Assembly (NCBI GenBank): GCA_040902205.1
Contig: JBBDXR010000034.1
Span: 2,859 to 66,858, forward strand
Reading direction: 5' to 3'
DNA length: 64,000 nucleotides
DNA from: Anaerolineales bacterium
GTDB lineage: Bacteria; Chloroflexota; Anaerolineae; Anaerolineales; UBA11579
Shown here in pieces: positions 2,675-63,771 of this stretch. Positions within the stretch are counted from its first letter, which is position 1. The number at the start of each line of letters is the position of its first letter. Under the pieces are notes generated by a model. It worked only from the letters and a program-made list of their open reading frames with translations, was not told the origin of the DNA and did not search any database. The translations under genes and the position numbers were made by a program.

Positions 2675-4714
2675 CTAGTTGGATAACAATTCCTTCAAAT
2701 CCCCTTCGGTGTTCACCGGCAGCTGGCACACAAAATTCCTGCACACATAGGCCGTCGGTTTGCCATCCTTGAGCGGCCGGTCAGCCAGCAAGGGCGGGCT
2801 GCCTGCAGGGGGAGGGAAGCCGGACATGGCGACGACATCGAAAGGCCGCCACTGTTTCCAAGTCTCATCAATTAACCTTATGGCGTCCTCTGTCTTGGGA
2901 TTGCCGACAACGGCGATCTCGCGGCCTTCGGCCAATGCGAAGTTCGCTGCGCATAGCCACATGCCAAATGCGGTCGGGTAGCGGCTAGCTGAAGGAAGGA
3001 TGATGGCGAGCATGCTCTCGGCCAGGTGGCGATGTTGGGCGCTGCCGCTGTACGTCGCAAGCTGCAAGAGACCCATGGCGGCCAGGGCGTTACCGCTAGG
3101 CGTGGCGTTATCCTGCTGATCCTTAGGGCGGGAGATCAGCGTTTCGTGGTCGTCGCGGGTATCGAAGAAGCCGCCCGCCGGGTCGCGGAAGTGGGCCAGC
3201 ATTTCGGCCGCCAGGCGCTCGGCTTCGGCATACCAACGCACGTCGGGTGCAGACTGGTAAAGGGCGAGCAGGCCAAGAATGAGGGCGGCGTAATCCTCCA
3301 GGTAGGCATTGTGCTCGGCGCGGCCGGACCGCCAGGAGCGCAGCAGGCGGTCACCCGGATGCAGCTCGCGCAACAAGAAGGCGGCATTGCGGCTGGCGAT
3401 GGCGGTGTAGTCCGGGCGGCGCAGATAGCGGCCGGCTTCCGCAAAAGCCAGCAGCATGAGCGCGTTCCATGAAGTGAGCACCTTATCGTCGGTAGCGGGC
3501 CGCACACGGCGGCCGCGGGCAGCCAGCAAGGCCGCCGCGGCCGAGGACAAGCGAGCCTTCACGGTTGCCGGATCACTATTGAACTCGCCGGCAAGCTCCT
3601 CATCCGATCTGGCGCGCTGCAGGATGCTGCCGTCTTCGAAGTTACCTTCTTTGGTTATCCCATATGCGGCTACGAATGAATCTCTAATCTCGTTATCTCC
3701 AATCTCGGCCTCTACCTCCTCCAGCGACCATACGTAGAACTTGCCCTCTTCGCCTTCGGAGTCGGCATCCAGGCTGCTGAGGAAGCCGCCCTGTTCGTTA
3801 CGCAGTTCTCGGGCGACGAAATCCAGGGTGCGCTCGCAGACCTCGCGCAGGGCTTCATCTCTAGTTACTAGATAGCCGTGCAAGTAGGCGCGGGCCAGTT
3901 GGGCGTTGTCGTACAGCATTTTTTCGAAATGCGGAACGAGCCAGAGTTCATCGACGCTGTAGCGGGCAAAGCCGCCGCCGACGACATCGTACATGCCGCC
4001 GCGGGCCATGGCGCGCAGGCAATGCACGGCCATAGCCTGCGCCAGCTTGTCGCCTTGCGTGGCGCGGCCGAGCAGGAAATCGATGGTCATGGGCTGCGGG
4101 AACTTAGGGGCGCCGCCCCAGCCGCCGTGGTTCCAATCGTAGGCCTGGGCCAGGGACATGATTGCGCGATCCAGCGCTTCAGGGTCCGGGCCGCCAGGTT
4201 GGCCGGCAGTGGGTTCGGCATGCTGCAAGTGCTGTTGCAATTGCCGGCCGGCCTCGAAGACCTTATCGCGCTGGCCCGACCACAAGTTGGACGCATGCTC
4301 AAGGATTTGGCGGAAGGAGGGCAGGCGGTGGCGCGGTTCGGGCGGAAAGTATGTGCCGCCCAGGAAGGGCTGGCCATTGGGCGTTAGGAAGACGCTCATG
4401 GGCCAGCCGCCGGAGCCGGTGAGGGCGACGACGGCGTTCATATAGATGCCGTCCAAGTCGGGACGCTCTTCGCGGTCCACCTTAATGTTCACAAAGTGCG
4501 CGTTCATGTAGGCGGCGGTCTCGGTGTCCTCGAAGGATTCGTGGGCCATCACATGGCACCAATGGCAGGCGGCATAGCCGATGCTGAGGAAGATGGGCTT
4601 ATCCTCGGCCACGGCGCGGGCCAGCGCCTGCGGCCCCCAGGGATACCAATCGACCGGGTTGTCCTGGTGTTGCAGCAGATAAGGCGAATTGGATTGGGCG
4701 AGGCGATTGGGCAT
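2675..4714 (-). CDS. thioredoxin-domain protein, DUF255/YyaL family
   Basis: 679-aa ORF. The N-terminus [18 protein letters not shown]...CHWCHVM is typical of DUF255, and the remainder resembles an epimerase-like alpha-toroid. Confidence 0.9.
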
Positions 4715-5571: not shown

Positions 5572-5799
5572 TTAATCAGCCGCGGATTTCGGTGGCGGGA
5601 TTTCCAACTTGTCTTTCGGCGTCTGGATGAATTTGTCGCCCACTTCGATCAGCATGACGGGGATGTCATCGATGACCGGATATTTGCGTCCGCATTCTTT
5701 GCAGATGAACCAGGCATCCTTGTAGAACTCCAGCTCGCCTTCGCTGGCCTGGACGCAATGGGGGCAACGCAGGATCTCGATAAGTTCTTTACTGACCAT
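5572..5799 (-). CDS. Trm112-family small zinc-ribbon protein
   Basis: 75 aa with LRCPHC...CKECGRKYPVIDDIPVML, the Trm112/UPF0434 signature. Confidence 0.8.
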   Translation of the reverse strand: MVSKELIEILRCPHCVQASEGELEFYKDAWFICKECGRKYPVIDDIPVMLIEVGDKFIQTPKDKLEIPPPKSAAD

Positions 5800-35531: not shown

Positions 35532-36191
35532 ATGAAATCTGAAGAGATCTATGCGCAGTTGGCAAGCCGCAAGGTATCCCCAGCCGATCTGGCCAAGAAG
35601 GCAGCAAGGAAGCCGGAGTTGATACCCATTCTGGTTGAGGGCATGTGCCAAAAGAAGGCCGAGGTTAAATACGGCAGCGCCAAGGCTTTACGCTTTGTTG
35701 TAGACGAGCAGCCGGAGCTGCTCTATCCCTATTTCGACGTGTTCGCCGTCATGCTGGATAATCGCAACAACATCTTCCAGTGGGAGGCGCTGTACCTGCT
35801 CGCCGGCCTGGCCTGCGTGGATGAGGACGATAAGCTGGAGGATCTATTGCCGGCCTATTTTGCCCGCCTGGAGGGGCCGACCATGATTACCGCCGCAAAC
35901 ACCATTAAAGGCGGCTCCCAGATCGCCAAAGCCAGGCCGGACCTGGCAAAGCGCATAGTCAAAGAAATTTTGCGGGCAGAAGACGGTCATTATGAGACCT
36001 CCGAATGCTATGAGATTGTGTGCGGTGAAGCCCTGAAGGCCTTTGACAAGATCTACAAGTTCCTGGAGGACCCATCTGTGGTGGTGGCCTTCGCCAAACG
36101 GCATAGGGATAGCGGTCGCAATTCGACTCGCATGGCTGCCCAGAAGCTTCTGGCCAGGAACACAAAAGCAGGCAAAGTGCCTGCGTTGTGA
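35532..36191 (+). CDS. hypothetical helical-repeat (HEAT-like) protein
   Basis: ATG at 35532 follows AGGAGG. The longer ORF from 35169 is an Arg-rich extension over the sucC leader. Confidence 0.65.
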   Translation: MKSEEIYAQLASRKVSPADLAKKAARKPELIPILVEGMCQKKAEVKYGSAKALRFVVDEQPELLYPYFDVFAVMLDNRNNIFQWEALYLLAGLACVDEDDKLEDLLPAYFARLEGPTMITAANTIKGGSQIAKARPDLAKRIVKEILRAEDGHYETSECYEIVCGEALKAFDKIYKFLEDPSVVVAFAKRHRDSGRNSTRMAAQKLLARNTKAGKVPAL

Positions 36192-36296: not shown

Positions 36297-36617
36297 ATGA
36301 CTGTTACCGAACTGATCGCGACGATCGACTCCAAGTCCATGACCGGCAGGGACGTGGTGGACCAGGCCCTCAACCGGCCGAAGGTCATCATGAGTCTTGT
36401 CGAAGGTTTATTCGCCTGGGATGCACGCGTGGCCTATGAGTGCGCGGGCTTGCTGACTCTGGTCAGCCGCGCCGCCCCCAAGTTGCTGTATCCTTATTTC
36501 AATTCCCTGGCTGATATGTTGGCCCACGCCGATTCGATCCGCCGCGAAGAAGTCAACGCCATGCTCCGCCGCCTCGAGCCGATCGATACCTTCAGCAAGC
36601 GGGCCTTCCTGGCCTGA
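36297..36617 (+). CDS. truncated paralog of the preceding helical-repeat protein
   Basis: 106 aa sharing LVEG...LLYPYF...ML with the 35532-36191 product. Confidence 0.5.
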   Translation: MTVTELIATIDSKSMTGRDVVDQALNRPKVIMSLVEGLFAWDARVAYECAGLLTLVSRAAPKLLYPYFNSLADMLAHADSIRREEVNAMLRRLEPIDTFSKRAFLA

Positions 36618-43204: not shown

Positions 43205-43288
43205 GTCATTCCGAGCGAGGGCGTCTTGCGCCGCCTTTAGCGGCGCAGCCCAGAGCCTGCCCTTGAGCGAAGCGAAGGGAGGAATCCC
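43205..43288. repeat. solo repeat R1 (GTCATTCCGAGC... family) with internal hairpin
   Basis: GTCATTCCGAGCGAGG, the hairpin GCGCCGC-CTTTA-GCGGCGC (43228-43246), then TGAGCGAAGCGAAGGGAGGAATCCC. Related to R2 at 48426-48510. Confidence 0.7.
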
Positions 43289-43345: not shown

Positions 43346-43492
43346 ATGCGCATCCTCGTAACCGGCGCCGCCGGCTTCCTCGGCTCCCATCTCTGCGACC
43401 GCCTCCTGGCCGAAGGCCACGAAGCCTGTCCTGAGCGAAGCGAAGGATCGTCGGCATGGACAGCCGGAAGGCCGCACTGGAGCGCGCGATGA
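43346..43492 (+). pseudogene. relic 5' end of uxs (31 codons) split by a 23-nt repeat insertion; reads as a 48-codon upstream ORF
   Basis: [26 protein letters not shown] | 23-nt insert at 43425-43447 | VVGMD. After the insert, the shifted frame ends in a TGA overlapping the uxs ATG (ATGA at 43489-43492). Confidence 0.8.
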
Positions 43493-44448
43493 GAGTGCTC
43501 GTAACTGGGGCCGCGGGATTTTTAGGTTCCCATCTGTGCGACCGCCTCTTGGCCGAAGGCCATGAGGTCGTCGGCATGGACAACTTCATCACCGGCAAGC
43601 CGGAGAACATCGCCCACCTGGCCGGCAACGAGCGTTTCCGCTTCATCCGCCATGATGTGTCAAATTACATCCACGTCCCCGGCAAACTGGACGCGGTGAT
43701 GCATTTTGCCTCGCCGGCCAGCCCCAACCCGGCGTCGCCCATCGGCTATCCCAATCTGCCCATCCAGACCATGAAGGCCGGCGCGCTTGGCACGCACAAC
43801 AGCCTCGGCGTGGCCTTTGCCAACAAGGCGCGCTTCATGCTCGCCTCTACCTCGGAGATCTACGGCGATCCCCTCGAGCATCCGCAGAAAGAGACCTACT
43901 GGGGCCACGTGGACCCCATTGGCGAGCGCTCCGTCTACGATGAAGCCAAGCGCTTCGCCGAAGCGCTCACCATGGCCTACCATCGCTTCCACGGCGTCAA
44001 CACCTGCATCGTGCGCATCTTCAACACCTACGGCCCCCGCATGCATATCGACGATGGCCGCGCCGTGGCCAACTTCATCCAGCAGGCTTTGCGCGGCGAG
44101 AAACTCACCGTCTACGGCGACGGCCAGCAGACGCGCAGCTTCTGCTACGTGGATGACGAGATCGAAGGCATCTACCGCCTGCTAGTCTCCGACGTGCACG
44201 AACCCGTGAACATCGGCAATCCCACCGAGATCACCATCGAGCAGTTCGCCAAAGAGATCGACTCCCTTGTCGGCAAGAAGGCTGGCCTGGTATACGACAA
44301 GGATCGCATGCTCTCCGGCGACCCGCTGCGCCGCCAGCCGGATATCACGCGGGCGAGCAAGCACCTCGGCTGGGAACCCAAGATCTCGTTGCAAGAAGGG
44401 CTTAAGAAGACCATCCCTTATTTCAAACAGCAGTTGGGGATTGCCTAA
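43489..44448 (+). CDS. uxs: UDP-glucuronate decarboxylase (UDP-xylose synthase)
   Basis: 319 aa, [20 protein letters not shown]... with the YDEAKR catalytic motif, an SDR extended-family member. Confidence 0.9.
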
Positions 44449-44449
44449 T

Positions 44450-44893
44450 CCGTCATTGCGAGGAGCCGTGTTGCCGTAGGCAACTAAGGCGACGTGGCAA
44501 TCTGATAGCCCCTTGACCTGGTACCGTGGTCAAAGAAATAGAGGCCTGCGTCTACATCCTGACCAACTGGAAACATACAGTCCTGTATACTGGAGTAACG
44601 AGTGACTTGGCTCGAAGGATGGAAGAACATTGAAGTAAAACTGGAAGCGCATTCGCAAAGCACTACAATCTAAACACGTTGGTTTTGTGGAGGTTACTGA
44701 GAGATTCGAGGATGCAATTGCCCGTGAGAAACAGATCAAATCTTGGGCGAGGTGGAGAAAGAACGAATTGATAAGTAGCGTCAATCCTGACTGGAAAGAC
44801 CTGTACGATGAATATTTTGATTAAGCGAGTTGCATTTTCCTTCGTAGGTTCAGATTGCCACGTCGCTCCCTTGCTGTGGCAATCTCCGAGACC
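44450..44893. mobile_element. decayed copy (E1) of the GIY-YIG/inverted-repeat unit
   Basis: The left end CCGTCATTGCGAGGAG plus hairpin GTTGCC-GTA-GGCAAC matches the E2 end. There is a perfect 17-bp inverted repeat, GCGACGTGGCAATCTGA (44489-44505) and its complement (44850-44866). The outer right repeat is degenerate. Confidence 0.6.
44526..44824 (+). pseudogene. GIY-YIG nuclease pseudogene
   Basis: Homologous to the 47469-47777 product (ACVYILTNWKHTVLYTGVT...EKQIKSW...NPDWKDLYDEYF). It has an in-frame TGA at 44631 and a 1-nt deletion in the T-run at 44683-44686. Confidence 0.8.
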
Positions 44894-44905
44894 ATTTGCT
44901 GAGTT

Positions 44906-45361
44906 ATGAGCCTAATTAATAGTCGCAAAGAGCAAAAAAGGTTCGTGAAATTCGCCATCGTCGGCGCCATCGGCACCCTCGTCGACTACAGCGTCTTCAA
45001 TCTCGTCGCCTTCCTCTTCGGCGTCGAGGAGCTCTACGCCCAGGGCATCAGCTTCCTGGCCGCCGTCGCCTCCAATTTCATCCTCAACCGCAACTGGACC
45101 TTCCGCGACTCGCGCACCAAGCACGTGCGCGTGCAGCTCGCCCAGTACGTGCTGGTCAACGCCATCGGCCTCCTCATCCGCACCCCCATCTTTGCCTTCC
45201 TTGGCGGCCTGTTTGGCAATATGCTGGCCGGCTTCCAGGTGCCCTTCGGGCTGACTGCACACTGGCTGGCCCACAACCTGGCCCTTGCGGGGGCTATTGG
45301 GGTCGTTTTACTTTGGAACTACTTCGTTAACAGGCGCTGGACATTCGGCGACGTCAAGTAG
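44906..45361 (+). CDS. GtrA-family membrane protein
   Basis: 151 aa with KFAIVGAIGTLVDYSVFN and C-terminal LLWNYFVNRRWTF. Confidence 0.85.
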   Translation: MSLINSRKEQKRFVKFAIVGAIGTLVDYSVFNLVAFLFGVEELYAQGISFLAAVASNFILNRNWTFRDSRTKHVRVQLAQYVLVNAIGLLIRTPIFAFLGGLFGNMLAGFQVPFGLTAHWLAHNLALAGAIGVVLLWNYFVNRRWTFGDVK

Positions 45362-45378
45362 CAGGCTGGAGAAGTGTT

Positions 45379-45402
45379 GCCCGGCGAAGCCGGGCTGTTT
45401 CT
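45379..45402 (+). terminator. terminator-like hairpin after gtrA
   Basis: GCCCGGC-GAA-GCCGGGC followed by TGTTTCT. Confidence 0.55.
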
Positions 45403-45431
45403 CCCGCGTTGCGTAGCAACGCACGGCACCC

Positions 45432-45497
45432 ATCGGCGTGGTGCTGCTATGGAACTACTTCGTCAATCGTAGGTGGACGTTCGGGGATGTGGAGTAG
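45432..45497 (+). pseudogene. relic 3' end of a diverged gtrA allele (21 codons plus stop)
   Basis: Encodes IGVVLLWNYFVNRRWTFGDVE*, against IGVVLLWNYFVNRRWTFGDVK* at the end of the functional gene 70 nt upstream. Confidence 0.8.
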
Positions 45498-45636
45498 TTC
45501 GAGTTAACTGACTAGCAACTGCTTTGTTGCGTCAGACGCTTTTGTGTCCATAACCAAGCCGCGCAGCAATAATAGCCCTCCCAAGTCCCTGTGGACCAAC
45601 CTCAATCCCAGTGTGGGTGAGCCCCTTCCTGCGACC

Positions 45637-45663
45637 TTGACAAGAATCCTCCAACGATATAAT
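45637..45663 (+). promoter_or_regulatory. candidate promoter TTGACA ... TATAAT upstream of the membrane-protein/wHTH pair
   Basis: TTGACA at 45637-45642 and TATAAT at 45658-45663 (15-nt spacer), or TAATAT with a 17-nt spacer. Confidence 0.5.
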
Positions 45664-45715
45664 ATGTAAATAGGTTTGCGATACAAAGTAGTCTGTACTG
45701 TCAAGTGGAGGATGT

Positions 45716-46333
45716 ATGCAAGGCCCAAAGGAAATCCGGTTTTTGACCCTAAGGTACTCTCGCAGCCAGGGATTAAAAGGGTTCCCCTTGGGGCTCCTAT
45801 TGCTAGCCGTCGTTCTCTGGGTAAATTTCACCTCAGGTGCTACCCGTAATCTGATTCTCCCAATCTCTTTCGGAGTAGGGGCGGCCATCCTGTATTGGCT
45901 GGTTGGTGACTATTATCGTAGGCGATATGGAAGGGTCGAGGTGACCGTCGAACAAAGGCGCGTGGACTTTTTGTATGCTGCCTTGGCTGGTATCACTGGT
46001 TTGGGTGCCTTTCTCATGGATGTCAGCTATGAACTCCCGGTCAACATGGTCGGCTTGGTGTTCGCGGCTGGCTGCATTTTCGAATACACGCGCCTTTACC
46101 GGCTGGGGAAGAGTTCCTATTTCGTGTGGCAAACGATCATAAGTTTTATTCTAATCTTGGCTGTCAGCCTCCTTCCGGTCCTTGGCGCCGGAGGTGTCTG
46201 GCTGCAGCTCGGCTTGCGCTCGCACCTCCTGTTGGTCTTGCTGGTCACCAGCGTTATCCTGCTGCTAGGGAGTTTGGGAGAGCATCTCAATTTCGTTCGC
46301 CAATTCCCGGCAGGGGAGATCGGACATGGCTAG
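45716..46333 (+). CDS. hypothetical polytopic membrane protein
   Basis: 205 aa with about 5-6 hydrophobic helices. GGAGGA lies upstream of the ATG. Confidence 0.65.
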   Translation: MQGPKEIRFLTLRYSRSQGLKGFPLGLLLLAVVLWVNFTSGATRNLILPISFGVGAAILYWLVGDYYRRRYGRVEVTVEQRRVDFLYAALAGITGLGAFLMDVSYELPVNMVGLVFAAGCIFEYTRLYRLGKSSYFVWQTIISFILILAVSLLPVLGAGGVWLQLGLRSHLLLVLLVTSVILLLGSLGEHLNFVRQFPAGEIGHG

Positions 46334-46652
46334 CGTCTTCGAAGAGATGGCCGGCCTGGACCGCTTGATCCACGAACCCGCCCGCTTGGCTATTCTCACG
46401 GCTTTGTCCGCCTGCAAAAAAGCCGACTTCACCTTCATGCAGCGCCTCACCGGGCTTACGGTGGGCAATCTCTCCGTCCATCTGTCCAAGCTGGAAGAGG
46501 CTGGCTTGCTGCGCACCGAAAAACAGTTCGTTGCCAAACGCTCAAATACCGTCGCCGAACTCACAAAAAAGGGGCGCGCTGCAATTGATAATCATTGGCG
46601 GCAACTCGAAACCTTACGTAAGGACTCTAGGAATTGGAAGGTCGGTCAATGA
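46326..46652 (+). CDS. winged-helix (ArsR/MarR-like) transcriptional regulator
   Basis: 108 aa with LIHEPARLAILTAL...LTVGNLSVHLSKLEEAGLL. Overlaps the upstream gene by 8 nt. Confidence 0.8.
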   Translation: MASVFEEMAGLDRLIHEPARLAILTALSACKKADFTFMQRLTGLTVGNLSVHLSKLEEAGLLRTEKQFVAKRSNTVAELTKKGRAAIDNHWRQLETLRKDSRNWKVGQ

Positions 46653-46779
46653 ATTGGCGTGCGCCTTCCGCTCCTTGACATCAGCCTGAATTCCCGCCAC
46701 AAATCCCCAAATCGTGCGATTAATAGGCCCATGAAAGGAAGGGGGGGCCCTGCTTGCCTGCTGCCTGCCGCTTGCCGGC

Positions 46780-46833
46780 CTTGTCAAGTTGTAATGGTGC
46801 CGTGTGGCGCTCGTTACATTACCACTTGACAAG
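46780..46833. promoter_or_regulatory. long inverted repeat carrying two CTTGWCAAG palindromes
   Basis: The arms CTTGTCAAGTTGTAATG and CATTACCACTTGACAAG pair at 16 of 17 positions, about 20 nt apart, upstream of the thioesterase gene. Confidence 0.4.
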
Positions 46834-46889
46834 CAGATGGCCTTGAATACGCGATCAAATCGGCCATGCTTTTTGCTTATAATCCTCCC

Positions 46890-47390
46890 ATGCCCGCCCC
46901 CAAGCTCGCCCCGCAGCCCGTTTCCGCCTCCCGGGTCACCATTTCCCAGCTCATGGAGCCGGCCCACGCCAACGTGCAAGGCAACGTCCACGGCGGCCAC
47001 ATCATGAAGCTGGTGGACGAAGCCGGCGCACTGGCCTGCATGAAGCACTCCCGCCAGCGCGTCGTCACCGTGGTCATCGACCGCATGACCTTCACCCATC
47101 CCATCAAGATCGGCGACCTGGTCACCATCACTGCCGAAGTCAGCTACGTCGGCTCCACCTCCATGGAGGCCGAAGTCTCTGTAAAGGCCGAGAACCCCAC
47201 CTCCGGCCAGGCCTGGGACACCAACACCGCCTACCTGGTCTACGTAGCCCTGGATGAGCTTGGCAAGCCCGTCCGCGTGCCGCCCCTGCTGGCCGAAAGC
47301 GATTTCGAGCGCCAGCGCATGGAGCAGGGCGCTGCCCGCCAGCAATACCGCCTCAGCCAGAAGCAATTGGCTTCGGCCACGAAACGATGA
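46890..47390 (+). CDS. acyl-CoA thioesterase (hotdog fold, YciA-like)
   Basis: NVQGNVHGGHIMKLVDEAG and ...TSMEAEVSV. Start taken at the second ATG (46890), though 46866 is also possible. Confidence 0.85.
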   Translation: MPAPKLAPQPVSASRVTISQLMEPAHANVQGNVHGGHIMKLVDEAGALACMKHSRQRVVTVVIDRMTFTHPIKIGDLVTITAEVSYVGSTSMEAEVSVKAENPTSGQAWDTNTAYLVYVALDELGKPVRVPPLLAESDFERQRMEQGAARQQYRLSQKQLASATKR

Positions 47391-47397
47391 TCTTCCA

Positions 47398-47851
47398 CCG
47401 TCATTGCGAGGAAGGCCGAATGTAAATGAGGCCGACGAAGCAATCCGTGCGCTGCTTAAAGGGCTAAGATGCGGAGAGACCAAGACGCCTGTGTGTACAT
47501 CCTTACGAACTGGAAACATACCGCTTTCTATACTGGTGTAACCAATGACCTGCAGCGACGAATAGAACAGCACAAAACCAAGGGAGGAGGTCAATTCACA
47601 AGAAAGTACAACCTTACTAAACTTGTATTTGTGGAAGTTACAGAGCGAATCGAAGATGCCATTGCTGGGGAAAAACAGATAAAGGGAGGTTCGCGTCAAG
47701 ACAAAATCGACCTAATAAATAAAATGAACCCCGAATGGAATGATCTCTACGATGAGTACTTCGCAATCAGTGAATGACTTGTCTGCTCGAATAGAATGGA
47801 CTAGATTGCTTCGTCGGCGTTGCCTTGGCAACGCACTCCTCGCAATGACGG
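47398..47851. mobile_element. compact GIY-YIG unit (E2) bounded by nested perfect inverted repeats
   Basis: Outer inverted repeat: CCGTCATTGCGAGGA (47398-47412) and TCCTCGCAATGACGG (47837-47851). Inner inverted repeat: GCCGACGAAGCAATC (47431-47445) and GATTGCTTCGTCGGC (47804-47818). Hairpin: GCGTTGCC-TT-GGCAACGC (47817-47834). Confidence 0.65.
47469..47777 (+). CDS. GIY-YIG nuclease family protein (small, stand-alone)
   Basis: 102 aa with VYILTN...FYTGVTNDLQRRIEQH...AIAGEKQIKG, the GIY-YIG core. Lower GC than the flanking genes. Confidence 0.85.
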   Translation: MRRDQDACVYILTNWKHTAFYTGVTNDLQRRIEQHKTKGGGQFTRKYNLTKLVFVEVTERIEDAIAGEKQIKGGSRQDKIDLINKMNPEWNDLYDEYFAISE

Positions 47852-47858
47852 TGCGGCC

Positions 47859-61983: not shown

Positions 61984-63771
61984 TTATTCTGCTTTCCTCT
62001 TCAGCAATATCGCAGTCAAGTCATCGTTAGGTACTCCGCCGGAGAAGGCGGCTATTTCTTCCTGGATCGTATTCAGGATGACGCTCGGATCCTCGTGGAT
62101 TAACTTCTTGAGCGCGGCCTGTATGCGGCGTTCCTCAAATAACCTTCCGGAAGAGTCCATGGCCTCGCTCATGCCATCGGTGTAGAACAGCACCAAATCC
62201 CCAGGGCCGAGTTCTACAACTTTCTGCTCGAGCCGGATGCCATGAACGACGCCAAGCGCAATCCCGTCCGCCCGCAACCGGGCGATACGCTTCTTGCCAG
62301 GACGCAACAATAGAGGCCTGGGGTGGCCGGCGTTCACGTAGGTGAGGGTTGCCTGTTTCGGATCCAGCAACCCGTAGAATAGCGTTACAAACCACTCGCT
62401 AAAGGAATCTGCAAGAATTAGGTCGTTCACCCGCTGGATGGCTTCAGCCGGCGGCCGGCCATCCATGCAGAAGGTTCGCACCAGGGTGCGACAAAAAGCC
62501 ATAAACACGGCTGCCGGCACGCCTTTGCCGGCTACATCGGCAATGATGAATCCCCAACGCTCTCCGGGCACGGGGAAACAATCGTAGAAATCCCCGCTCA
62601 CTCCTTTGGCCGCGCTCCATCGCGCGGCTACATCCCAACCGGCGATCTTGGGCAGTCTGCGTGGAAGCAAGCTGGATTGGATGGTGTGGGCAACGCGAAT
62701 CTCACTTTCAAGGCTTTCCTTTTCGCGTACTTGAGCATAGAGTTGCTGCAATTCGCCGTATTGCTGGGCATTGGCAACCGCCACAGCCGCCTGGCTGGCA
62801 AACAGCGTCAGCAGCCTCAGATCGTCCTGGTTGAACGCGGGGTCATTTTTCCTGCGGGAGAGGGCGATGACGCCCAGAATCCTTTCGCCATGCTCCACAG
62901 GGATAGCGATGGCCTGCCGGATCAAACCTAGCGGGGTATTGGTGGCCCGATTTTCCCAGGCATCGTAATCATTAATGATCATAGCCTTGCGGGTGGAGAA
63001 CACGGTGCCCGAGAGTCCTTCTCCCGGCTTCATGTTCACGGTGCGCAGGGCGGGGGGCAGGTGCCCGGGGACGGCTGGCACCAACACCTGACGCTGCTTG
63101 TCGAAGGTATAGAACTGGCCGTAAAAACCGTGCACAAGGTTCTCGGCGCGTTGGATCATGCGCTCCAGCACCACGGGAATATCCAGTTGCCGCGTGATCT
63201 CCAATGAGGTTTCGTAGAGGCTGGAAAGTTCCTGGGCGGCGCGCTTGGCCTCCTCGTACAACTGCGCATTCGAGATGGCAATGGCGGCCTGGCTGGCAAA
63301 GAGCTGCAGTTTTTCCAGATCCTCTTCGCTGAAAGGCGGCTCCTTTGGCTTGCGCTCGGCGAAGATTACGCCAAGGAATTCATCGCCTTTCTGCACCGGA
63401 GCTTGGACCACCGCGCCGACGATGCCTCTGGGCTGTTTTGGGTTGCGCCCGGGCCATTGATCATAGTCATCCACTTTCATCGGCATGCGCGTCTGCATGA
63501 CGCGCCCGGCCATTCCCTCGCCGGGTTTCACGACATAAAGCGCTTCTTCAGGCTGCCGAATATGGATAACAGGATCCAGTTCCCCGCGTTGGACATCGTA
63601 GAGGTAAATGCCCCCTGAATCGGCGTCCAGGAACTCCACGACGCCGCTGGCCATGGATTCCAGCAACGGCTTGAGCTCAAGCTGGCTTAGGAGCTTGTTG
63701 CTGAATTCCTGTAATTGGCGGAATGTGGACTGCCGGCGAAGGTCATCTGCAGTCGGTATTTGGCCGTCCAT
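61984..63771 (-). CDS. GAF-GAF-PP2C (SpoIIE/RsbU-type) phosphatase
   Basis: 595 aa with two GAF-like segments and then a PP2C region (SGDFYD, IADVAGKGVPAA, YTDG). Confidence 0.9.
   Translation of the reverse strand: MDGQIPTADDLRRQSTFRQLQEFSNKLLSQLELKPLLESMASGVVEFLDADSGGIYLYDVQRGELDPVIHIRQPEEALYVVKPGEGMAGRVMQTRMPMKVDDYDQWPGRNPKQPRGIVGAVVQAPVQKGDEFLGVIFAERKPKEPPFSEEDLEKLQLFASQAAIAISNAQLYEEAKRAAQELSSLYETSLEITRQLDIPVVLERMIQRAENLVHGFYGQFYTFDKQRQVLVPAVPGHLPPALRTVNMKPGEGLSGTVFSTRKAMIINDYDAWENRATNTPLGLIRQAIAIPVEHGERILGVIALSRRKNDPAFNQDDLRLLTLFASQAAVAVANAQQYGELQQLYAQVREKESLESEIRVAHTIQSSLLPRRLPKIAGWDVAARWSAAKGVSGDFYDCFPVPGERWGFIIADVAGKGVPAAVFMAFCRTLVRTFCMDGRPPAEAIQRVNDLILADSFSEWFVTLFYGLLDPKQATLTYVNAGHPRPLLLRPGKKRIARLRADGIALGVVHGIRLEQKVVELGPGDLVLFYTDGMSEAMDSSGRLFEERRIQAALKKLIHEDPSVILNTIQEEIAAFSGGVPNDDLTAILLKRKAE

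Follow-up and report, generated by a model that had tools for sequence, protein, structure and literature searches.

Free-standing GIY-YIG nucleases are known from the T-even phages, whose Seg proteins carry out intronless homing with co-conversion; these enzymes have a DNA-binding domain, cut double-stranded DNA and leave no leftover duplicates. Replacement gene ends are known from e14 or phage 21 at icd of Escherichia coli and from tRNA-gene islands, which are kilobases long, encode an integrase and bring an element-borne gene end when they integrate. The orphan C-terminal modules of rhs and cdiA carry different toxins, each with its immunity gene, presumably under selection for diversity. 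Homology-facilitated illegitimate recombination in natural transformation, in which foreign DNA pairs by homology on one side and is attached without homology on the other, was reportedly described in 2002 by de Vries and Wackernagel and by Prudhomme et al. Here we describe a locus from an Anaerolineales bacterium (GenBank assembly GCA_040902205.1, contig JBBDXR010000034.1), analysed within a stretch of 64,000 nucleotides (nt) that we call the window, in which the neighbouring genes uxs and gtrA enclose a GIY-YIG unit and are each accompanied by a displaced duplicate of one of their ends, which we call a relic.

The closest described counterparts of the GIY-YIG unit are the Ssn proteins, single-strand-specific GIY-YIG nucleases with flanking SRM/NTS hairpin repeats that were first described in 2025 (Chenal et al. 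2025, PMC11893778). The Neisseria Ssn cuts single-stranded DNA 3 nt 5′ of the repeat and limits and shapes the recombination of incoming single-stranded DNA (PMC11893778). Like Ssn, the units studied here encode a single-domain GIY-YIG protein of ~100 amino acids, within the 90–110 residues of that group, and have inverted hairpin repeats on both sides that start with CGTCATT and end with AATC, the degenerate copy of the window keeping a full left repeat and a truncated right one; solo repeats are likewise scattered in intergenic DNA near envelope-related genes. Unlike the SRM repeats, those found here are longer (38–82 nt, with an inner hairpin), have a much larger interior and fall outside the published degenerate pattern. 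The Ssn study describes no displaced, synonymously recoded gene ends beside repeats (PMC11893778), and no description of this signature was found in the literature searched. We rate the finding as a variant of one-sided recombination scars and of Ssn/repeat biology.

As in homology-facilitated illegitimate recombination, foreign DNA anchored by homology on one side appears to have been inserted beside a conserved gene, and a foreign segment joined by homology on one side is what the gtrA end displays, with a synonymously saturated new 3′ end and a change-point near codon 120. Unlike in that process, such products are found repeatedly here at the ends of a single gene pair, the donor-side end lies a few bases past a hairpin, a protein-preserving duplicate results, and the block formed by the new end, its flank and the relic then appears to spread between lineages. 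The original prediction had drawn an analogy with intronless homing and co-conversion, and the locus does resemble Seg homing in that the nuclease gene is polymorphic between conserved genes and flanking gene sequence has been replaced by diverged donor sequence. In other respects it differs: no contiguous diverged tracts are inherited together with the gene, and the 102-residue protein is a single domain with no separate DNA-binding domain; moreover, blocks occur without the nuclease gene (loci L002, L006 and L095 of our comparison set) and the gene occurs without blocks (L174). As at icd, the working gene consists of a body and a synonymously different incoming end, the resident end is displaced and tandem accretion is possible, but only 24–92 nt lie between the two ends and no kilobase-long element or recombinase is present. 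The rhs and cdiA orphans arise when an incoming 3′ end recombines at a conserved region and the older end is shifted downstream, which gives stacks like that of L128; unlike there, the displaced and the working ends here encode nearly the same residues.

Protein-preserving duplicates of the uxs and gtrA ends

Between 43.1 and 45.6 kb the elements of the locus follow one another as hairpin repeat, uxs 5′ relic, linker, uxs, GIY-YIG unit, gtrA, tail and gtrA relic, all on the + strand, as is the intact Ssn-like unit at 47396–47853. The working uxs (43489–44448; UDP-glucuronate decarboxylase family, Pfam PF16363 and PF01370) encodes a protein 92% identical to that of the relative L002. Its relic (43346–43464, the 3′ limit of about 43464 being set by comparison with L002) consists of codons 1–32 of a resident-type uxs, is detached from the gene and is split by a frame-breaking 23-nt insert (CCTGTCCTGAGCGAAGCGAAGGA, 43425–43447) that is identical in L002, L003 and L005. 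When positions 43346–43422 of the relic were compared with the working start (43489–43565), nucleotide identity was 79–81% while 25 of 26 amino acids were identical, and the differences fell 5/1/12 on codon positions 1/2/3. Synonymous and non-synonymous differences per site between the new end and the relic came to 0.53 (pS) and 0.06 (pN). Downstream of the 23-nt insert the relic resumes with 15 nt identical to the functional copy, and after the recoded 5′ end of the gene (43489–43566) there is an 18-nt stretch with one base difference between relic and working copy.

At the other side of the pair, the working gtrA (44906–45361; GtrA/DPMS transmembrane family, Pfam PF04138; protein 87% identical to that of L002) is followed at 45432–45497 by the resident last 21 codons and stop of the gene, continuous with resident downstream DNA. 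This relic and the working end at 45296–45361 share 71–73% of their nucleotides and 20 of 21 amino acids; 14 codons carry a synonymous change and one a non-synonymous change, and the differences are distributed 4/0/14 over codon positions 1/2/3. The copies of each pair stand in tandem, 136–143 nt apart. Six-frame self-comparisons of the 64-kb window and of 92 sequences (679 kb) found local duplications of this kind, conserved in protein and diverged in DNA, at uxs and gtrA alone, so they are more than chance; no other gene proved to have a duplicated end, either within the window or across ~1 Mb of related loci. The duplications are thus real and their copies differ almost only synonymously. 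Both relics, the near-exclusively synonymous nature of their differences and the five-part order of relic, uxs, GIY-YIG unit, gtrA and relic had been predicted originally, and all three were borne out.

The uxs relic opens a 48-codon open reading frame (ORF; 43346–43492) that runs through the 23-nt insert and whose TGA overlaps the ATG of uxs (ATGA); in L002 the ORF that the relic opens stops 3 nt earlier. Possibly it is a translated leader, or its sequence may have been subject to gene conversion.

We then asked which copy is foreign by comparison with relatives. Measured against L002, gtrA codons 1–130 have a pS of 0.37 and the 3′ relic one of 0.42, while in the working 3′ end every one of the 14 synonymous sites is different (p ~1e-6). 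Dense codon differences from L002 begin at about codon 120 and delimit a patch of ~170 nt (~45260–45431), made up of an imported gtrA 3′ end (45260–45361, of which 45296–45361 is the duplicated, recoded portion) and a 70-nt two-hairpin tail that arrived with it (45362–45431). Outside the patch, the rest of gtrA, uxs and the flanking genes share L002 as their nearest relative, and the relic together with its downstream DNA is collinear with the functional gtrA end of L002 and what follows it (87.6% over 129 nt). The 3′ relic is 82–88% identical to the GC-type working ends of L002, L088, L090 and L093; the new gtrA end reaches 65–77% with every other sampled end.

At the 5′ side the picture is the same. 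Identity of the uxs relic to the working uxs start of L174 is 89%, and to the relic of L002 95%; the working start of the window reaches 72% with L174. The recoded start has AT-richer codons, with G or C at the third codon position (GC3) in 16 of 26 codons versus 22 of 26 in the relic; when five blocks were pooled, GC3 was 54/97 in the new ends versus 73/97 in the relics (p = 0.006). The 24-nt linker that came with the new start (43465–43488, with a GGAG 7 nt 5′ of the ATG) is 81% identical to the linker of L002 and has no similarity to the DNA 5′ of the relic. Because the working 3′ end is saturated relative to L002 while the pS of the relic is close to that of the gene body, because the relics are closer to the working ends of relatives, and because GC3 is lower in the new ends, we conclude that the working ends are imported and that the relics are the resident ends.

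The reverse polarity, in which the 3′ relic is foreign and came with a downstream two-gene module while the working end is native, was suggested by the identity profile, the module 3′ of the relic being 95–98% identical to L002. We rejected it, as the relic has the pS of the gene body relative to L002 and the working end is saturated.

Separate parts and recurring blocks among relatives

Scans of genomes and metagenomes with a GtrA alignment yielded 160 loci, and 162 loci hold both uxs and gtrA. In 143 of these 162 the two genes lie no more than 30 nt apart and often overlap, and the compact relatives L090 and L173 have the order ScpB, G5, uxs, gtrA, 4HBT, RsmD. This adjacency, seen across about 160 Anaerolineales loci, is ancestral, and the uxs–gtrA pair is therefore resident and not imported.

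The elements of the window are distributed separately over these relatives. L002, L003 and L005 have the 5′ relic, the 23-nt insert and the junction exactly as in the window, but lack both a 3′ relic and a GIY-YIG gene in the uxs–gtrA spacer: the spacer of L002 holds a 58-nt solo repeat only, and the functional gtrA end of all three is the ortholog of the 3′ relic of the window. Conversely, L004 and L174 carry an intact GIY-YIG unit in the spacer without a uxs 5′ relic or a gtrA 3′ relic, and the flanks of the L174 unit are of the resident type. L095 has the 3′ block with only a solo repeat in its spacer, L096 has a nuclease unit and the 3′ block, and L006 has a block at the gtrA 5′ end and no nuclease gene; since the contigs of L095 and L096 end before the uxs 5′ end, a 5′ relic cannot be scored there. 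In sum, the window, L004, L096 and L174 have a GIY-YIG gene in this spacer, and L002, L090, L173 and most of the 162 loci lack it. Our results showed that the uxs 5′ patch, the gtrA 3′ patch and the GIY-YIG unit are distributed independently over the relatives.

The uxs–gtrA junction, as a rule tiny or an overlap, holds solo repeats or nuclease units in the closer relatives L002, L004, L008, L085, L088, L095, L096 and L174 and in the window. With at least nine such loci, the spacer is an insertion hotspot for hairpin repeats.

The 3′ block recurs in L095 and L096, which come from unrelated Joint Genome Institute (JGI) metagenomes. Both have an AT-type working gtrA end, a tail homologous to that of the window with the hairpin CGTTGCGAAGCAACG, and a relic, which in L095 has decayed by two 1-nt deletions. 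Between the window and L095, nucleotide identity is 70% over gtrA codons 1–110, 79% in the new end, 83% (53/64) in the non-coding tail and 88% in the relic. Because non-functional DNA is better conserved than the gene, the block must have moved between lineages after the genes had diverged; it is homologous in three lineages and has been horizontally transferred. A similar gradient holds for the 5′ block, with identities between the window and L002 of 95% in the relic region, 86% in uxs and 76% in the upstream G5 gene.

A third kind of block lies at the gtrA start of L004 and L006, where a 12-codon relic and a ~61-nt element that resembles one flank of the GIY-YIG unit precede 12 recoded codons. 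In the window too, gtrA begins with AT-rich, recoded sequence like that behind the gtrA 5′ relic in L004 and L006, and its own 5′ relic has apparently been deleted. Identity between L004 and L006 is 61% for the element versus 69% for the gene body, which gives no evidence for or against recent spread. Finally, in L128, from a more distant lineage, four displaced gtrA 3′ ends are stacked (3451–3972); they are of three kinds, and a two-hairpin element precedes each. Two of the ends form a tandem duplicate of 97 nt, one relic is an intact fragment of 58 codons that differs in its loop sequence, and the last relic abuts the start of the 4HBT (thioesterase) gene. The elements of L128 start directly 3′ of a stop codon and end 9–14 nt beyond the second hairpin, and the displaced ends that follow them keep 11 to 58 codons.

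Origin of the displaced ends

The reading that we prefer, and to which we give an even chance of being right, is that the relics are the original uxs and gtrA ends, each displaced by a short patch from a diverged relative, in two separate events to which the insertion of the nuclease unit would add a third. Each patch would have brought the same gene end in other, AT-richer codons together with 24–70 nt of non-coding DNA that flanks it in the donor: for uxs, the 24-nt leader with its ribosome-binding site, and for gtrA, a terminator-like tail with two hairpins whose source would be the hairpin repeat family. On its inner side the patch would have paired by homology within the gene, and on its outer side it would at first have been joined, with no homology there, to a point a few dozen bases into the resident end, so that a dead duplicate was left beyond it. 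Once formed, the block of new end, flank and relic could be passed on through ordinary homologous recombination in which the gene body and the relic act as arms, which is how we believe the 3′ block spread. The GIY-YIG unit would be an independent insertion of an Ssn-like nuclease with its hairpin repeats that later decayed. This reading is close to the second one offered originally, two miniature insertions that each carried a recoded terminus, which our results support and extend: the working ends are the imported ones, and the 3′ block recurs and has moved between lineages.

Several points weigh against it. No donor that carries the new ends of the window natively was found in 174 loci, and the one-sided illegitimate origin of each block is something that we infer from topology only. 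In ~1 Mb of flanking DNA, all three block families are confined to uxs or gtrA, which hints at targeting over accident. Among the seven differences between the uxs relics of the window and L002, five are at third codon positions, which is marginally significant and unexpected for a neutral remnant. In addition, the 42 nt of GC-rich hairpins at 45380–45421, within the tail, are covered by the source assembly alone, the sequences are short and the carriers are few.

The hairpins that adjoin the relics raise another possibility. The tail at 45362–45431 contains two hairpins (DNA fold z = -3.3), of which the first is terminator-like, with a predicted site at 45379–45395, and the second, CGTTGCGTAGCAACG with a CAC behind it, is the same as the inner hairpin in the right repeat belonging to an intact Ssn-like unit further downstream (47818). 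The tail hairpin is therefore related to the repeat family that flanks the GIY-YIG genes. The tail ends in CGGCACCC, which resembles the resident CCGGCGCC just 5′ of the relic, at a junction that may be inherited from another lineage. In L004 and L006 the gtrA 5′ junction lies exactly 3 nt 5′ of the SRM-like start (AAAAGG|GGA-GTTTATTGCGAGG), the offset at which SsnA of N. meningitidis cuts. As for structured RNAs or riboswitches, the relic and tail regions gave no Rfam match at E <= 1 except two chance hits.

From these observations it could be argued that the hairpin pieces are mobile mini-elements, non-autonomous derivatives of Ssn-like units that home into conserved gene ends, an idea that we regard as doubtful but worth weighing. 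The nuclease would cut single-stranded DNA by the hairpin, one-ended repair would copy the element together with a synonymous gene end, and the recoding would protect carriers; all these steps are tentative. Taken further, and just as tentatively, these would be selfish, 'end-displacing' Ssn-repeat hairpin elements that invade the first or last few dozen codons of a gene and bring a synonymous end so that the host gene works. By the same speculative account, recoding and a split target would confer immunity to cutting, the elements would spread by nuclease-triggered one-ended repair, and dead-end stacks would record past invasions. The cut-offset junction of L004 and L006 and the shared inner hairpin speak for such elements, and so do the clustering of events at uxs and gtrA with a spacer hotspot in at least nine loci, the stacked ends of L128, the better conservation of the block than of its host gene, and the AT-richness that the new ends share with the nuclease unit. 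On the other hand, the duplicated resident end ranges from 11 to 58 codons among the gtrA 3′ events, the tail of the window is a truncated repeat whose junction lies off the canonical cut position, and the uxs 5′ junction has no recognisable repeat. Furthermore, intact nuclease units occur without relics and blocks at loci without a nuclease gene, and the published SRM pattern, HGTCWYN(0-2)YYVSBRHN(0-5)WNVSBRGN(0-2)RNCYNB, has 0 matches in the window.

It had originally been proposed that uxs, the GIY-YIG unit and gtrA form a single ~2-kb cassette that replaced the interior of the resident pair in one event, the relics being its illegitimate ends. The symmetric junctions facing outward from the pair, the AT-richer codons of both new ends, the lower synonymous divergence (dS) from L002 of uxs and gtrA (0.5–0.6) than of upstream genes (1.0–1.2), and relic flanks closer to L002 than the interior would all suit that proposal. 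The distribution among relatives has nevertheless largely refuted it already, and we consider it quite unlikely: L002 shares the 5′ junction with neither the nuclease gene nor the 3′ junction, the 3′ block of L095 and L096 accompanies a mere solo repeat in the spacer of the former, and in L004 and L174 the unit is present but the uxs 5′ and gtrA 3′ relics are missing. The synteny of relatives with and without the nuclease unit, which had been named as a check, thus revealed separate parts, unlike one cassette. To this are added the ancestral adjacency of the pair and the confinement of strong divergence at the gtrA end to ~170 nt, with a pS relative to L002 of 0.37 in the gtrA body versus 1.0 in the new end.

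Even less probable, in our judgment, is that the blocks are remnants of larger integrative elements that carried a site-specific recombinase and a replacement gene end and later lost their interiors. The topology of body, element-borne end, element and displaced synonymous resident end is that of e14 at icd, and the stack of L128 resembles tandem islands at one attachment site. Yet every carrier has only 24–92 nt between the duplicated ends, where there is no ORF, recombinase gene or remnant of one, and the length of the duplicated resident end varies. Since the short tails are homologous across lineages, they appear to be the whole element.

An assembly artefact, in which contigs of co-occurring strains were joined in series and left two gene-end alleles in tandem, is a very remote explanation. 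It could be invoked because the assembly of the window and L002 come from related samples (SRR27977660 and SRR27977658) and because independently assembled Logan contigs of SRR27977660, which match the window at 100% identity over 44008–45379 and 45422–47024, break on either side of the tail, where 45380–45421 is left without a second assembly. But the second contig opens, after poly-C junk, with ACGGCACCC and the gtrA relic rather than with the gtrA body, so the truncated relic exists in the reads. The 5′ structure was reproduced in two assemblies of the relative, a metagenome-assembled genome at NCBI (L002 = L005) and a Logan contig (L003), and the identical 3′ architecture of L095 and L096 comes from unrelated metagenomes, with a decayed, frameshifted relic in L095. 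The poly-C of the Logan contig over the 3′ relic (L092, positions 1–20, ~20 C residues) probably arose in sequencing or assembly as an error where the contig ends.

That each gene end was duplicated locally and the copies then diverged where they stood, though suggested by the tandem arrangement at 136–143 nt, is scarcely credible and already refuted by the codon positions: a dead copy would change at all of them whereas the differences are almost all synonymous, the DNA 5′ of the relic start is unlike the linker 5′ of the new start, and the new 3′ end, but not the gene body, is synonymously saturated relative to the closest relative. The almost exclusively synonymous differences rule out target-site duplication in the same way. 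A diversity-generating retroelement was also discarded, as the differences are of all base types and almost all synonymous and no reverse-transcriptase domain was found by Pfam in ten ORFs of the 41.6–48.4 kb region.

Coming back to displacement by imported patches, the original prediction linked the GIY-YIG gene to exchange of the flanking genes, and this link is indirect at best. The gene is not needed in cis and is a pseudogene at this position; the hairpins adjoining the relics are related to the repeats that flank GIY-YIG genes. A mechanistic link, by which a nuclease would have cut single-stranded DNA beside hairpins, is plausible: relatives of the repeats sit exactly where foreign patches end and resident gene ends are displaced, and one class of junction lies at the cut offset of the Neisseria enzyme. 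If the link is true, the relics would be the first natural footprints of Ssn-type nucleases shaping recombination and would offer concrete substrates with predicted cut sites. Even without it, the locus shows that a tiny insertion can bring the synonymous replacement of a gene end, that the block as a whole can pass from one lineage to another even though their genes are only 70% identical, and that successive events can stack. Such mosaicism would confuse gene calling, an ATG derived from the relic extending the uxs ORF to 330 amino acids, and also the allele phylogenies of cell-envelope sugar loci.

Nuclease units, repeats and neighbouring genes

The window contains two Ssn-like units. The one between uxs and gtrA (44449–44905, identical in the Logan contig L001) is degenerate and consists of a left hairpin repeat (44452–44502), a GIY-YIG pseudogene (44526–44824), disrupted by an in-frame TGA and a frameshift when compared with the intact copy, and a truncated right repeat (~44850–44885). 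The other (47396–47853) is intact and has no flanking relics. Its gene (47469–47777) encodes a protein of 102 amino acids with Pfam PF01541 at residues 8–78 as the sole domain, the homologues of L004 and L174 having 99 amino acids, and it is enclosed by perfect inverted repeats of 17 and 15 nt and by repeat copies at 47400–47445 (+) and 47804–47849 (-). The only NCBIfam match of the protein was a sub-threshold one to a group I intron endonuclease model, and its nearest sequence in the PDB is 1ZG2, the UPF0213 protein BH0048 (E = 1.4e-6). Judging from these features, the unit resembles an Ssn-type single-strand DNA nuclease and not a double-strand homing endonuclease. The 17-nt perfect terminal inverted repeats of the intact unit are CACCGTCATTGCGAGGA, and the unit sits between the thioesterase and rsmD genes, a site at which the two genes overlap in L090, L002 has a rhodanese gene and L004 a solo repeat.

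A relaxed repeat pattern retrieved four long repeat copies in the window versus 0.63 expected, all of them at 43.2–47.9 kb. The first is an SRM-like hairpin repeat of 82 nt (GTCATTCC...GGAATC, 43205–43286) that holds a nested insert of ~25 nt and lies 60 nt 5′ of the uxs relic, with a homologous copy at the equivalent position in L002. The motif AGCCTGYCC(T)KAGCGAAGCGAAGG, of ~23–27 nt, was found as an insert in three contexts, the uxs relic and two different positions within hairpin repeats (window 43425–43447 and 43250–43278; L002 ~5766–5790; L009 ~3430; L010 ~4915), and it behaves like a tiny insertion module of its own.

Downstream of the gtrA relic, a two-gene module (45570–46652) comprises genes for a 205-residue membrane protein with no family match (45716–46333) and an HTH_34/ArsR-type regulator (46326–46652), with a promoter-like site (TTGACA, 17-nt spacer, TAATAT; 45637–45665) 5′ of the first. 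Its identity to L002 is 95–98%, with a dS of 0.13 and 0.05 for the two genes and of 0.4–1.2 for neighbouring genes, and it is missing from the compact ancestral layout of L090 and L173 and present in L174. From these comparisons the module seems to be an insertion between gtrA and the thioesterase gene that was exchanged recently. GC3 is 0.83–0.86 for uxs, gtrA and the thioesterase gene (46866–47390) in the window and L002 alike, 0.64–0.66 in the inserted module and 0.60–0.80 in most other long window ORFs measured. Elsewhere in the window, two further local repeats at the protein level, 35532–35834 versus 36297–36599 (34% over 101 amino acids) and 62753–62935 versus 63251–63433 (48% over 61 amino acids), look like internal repeats or paralogous domains and not gene-end duplicates.

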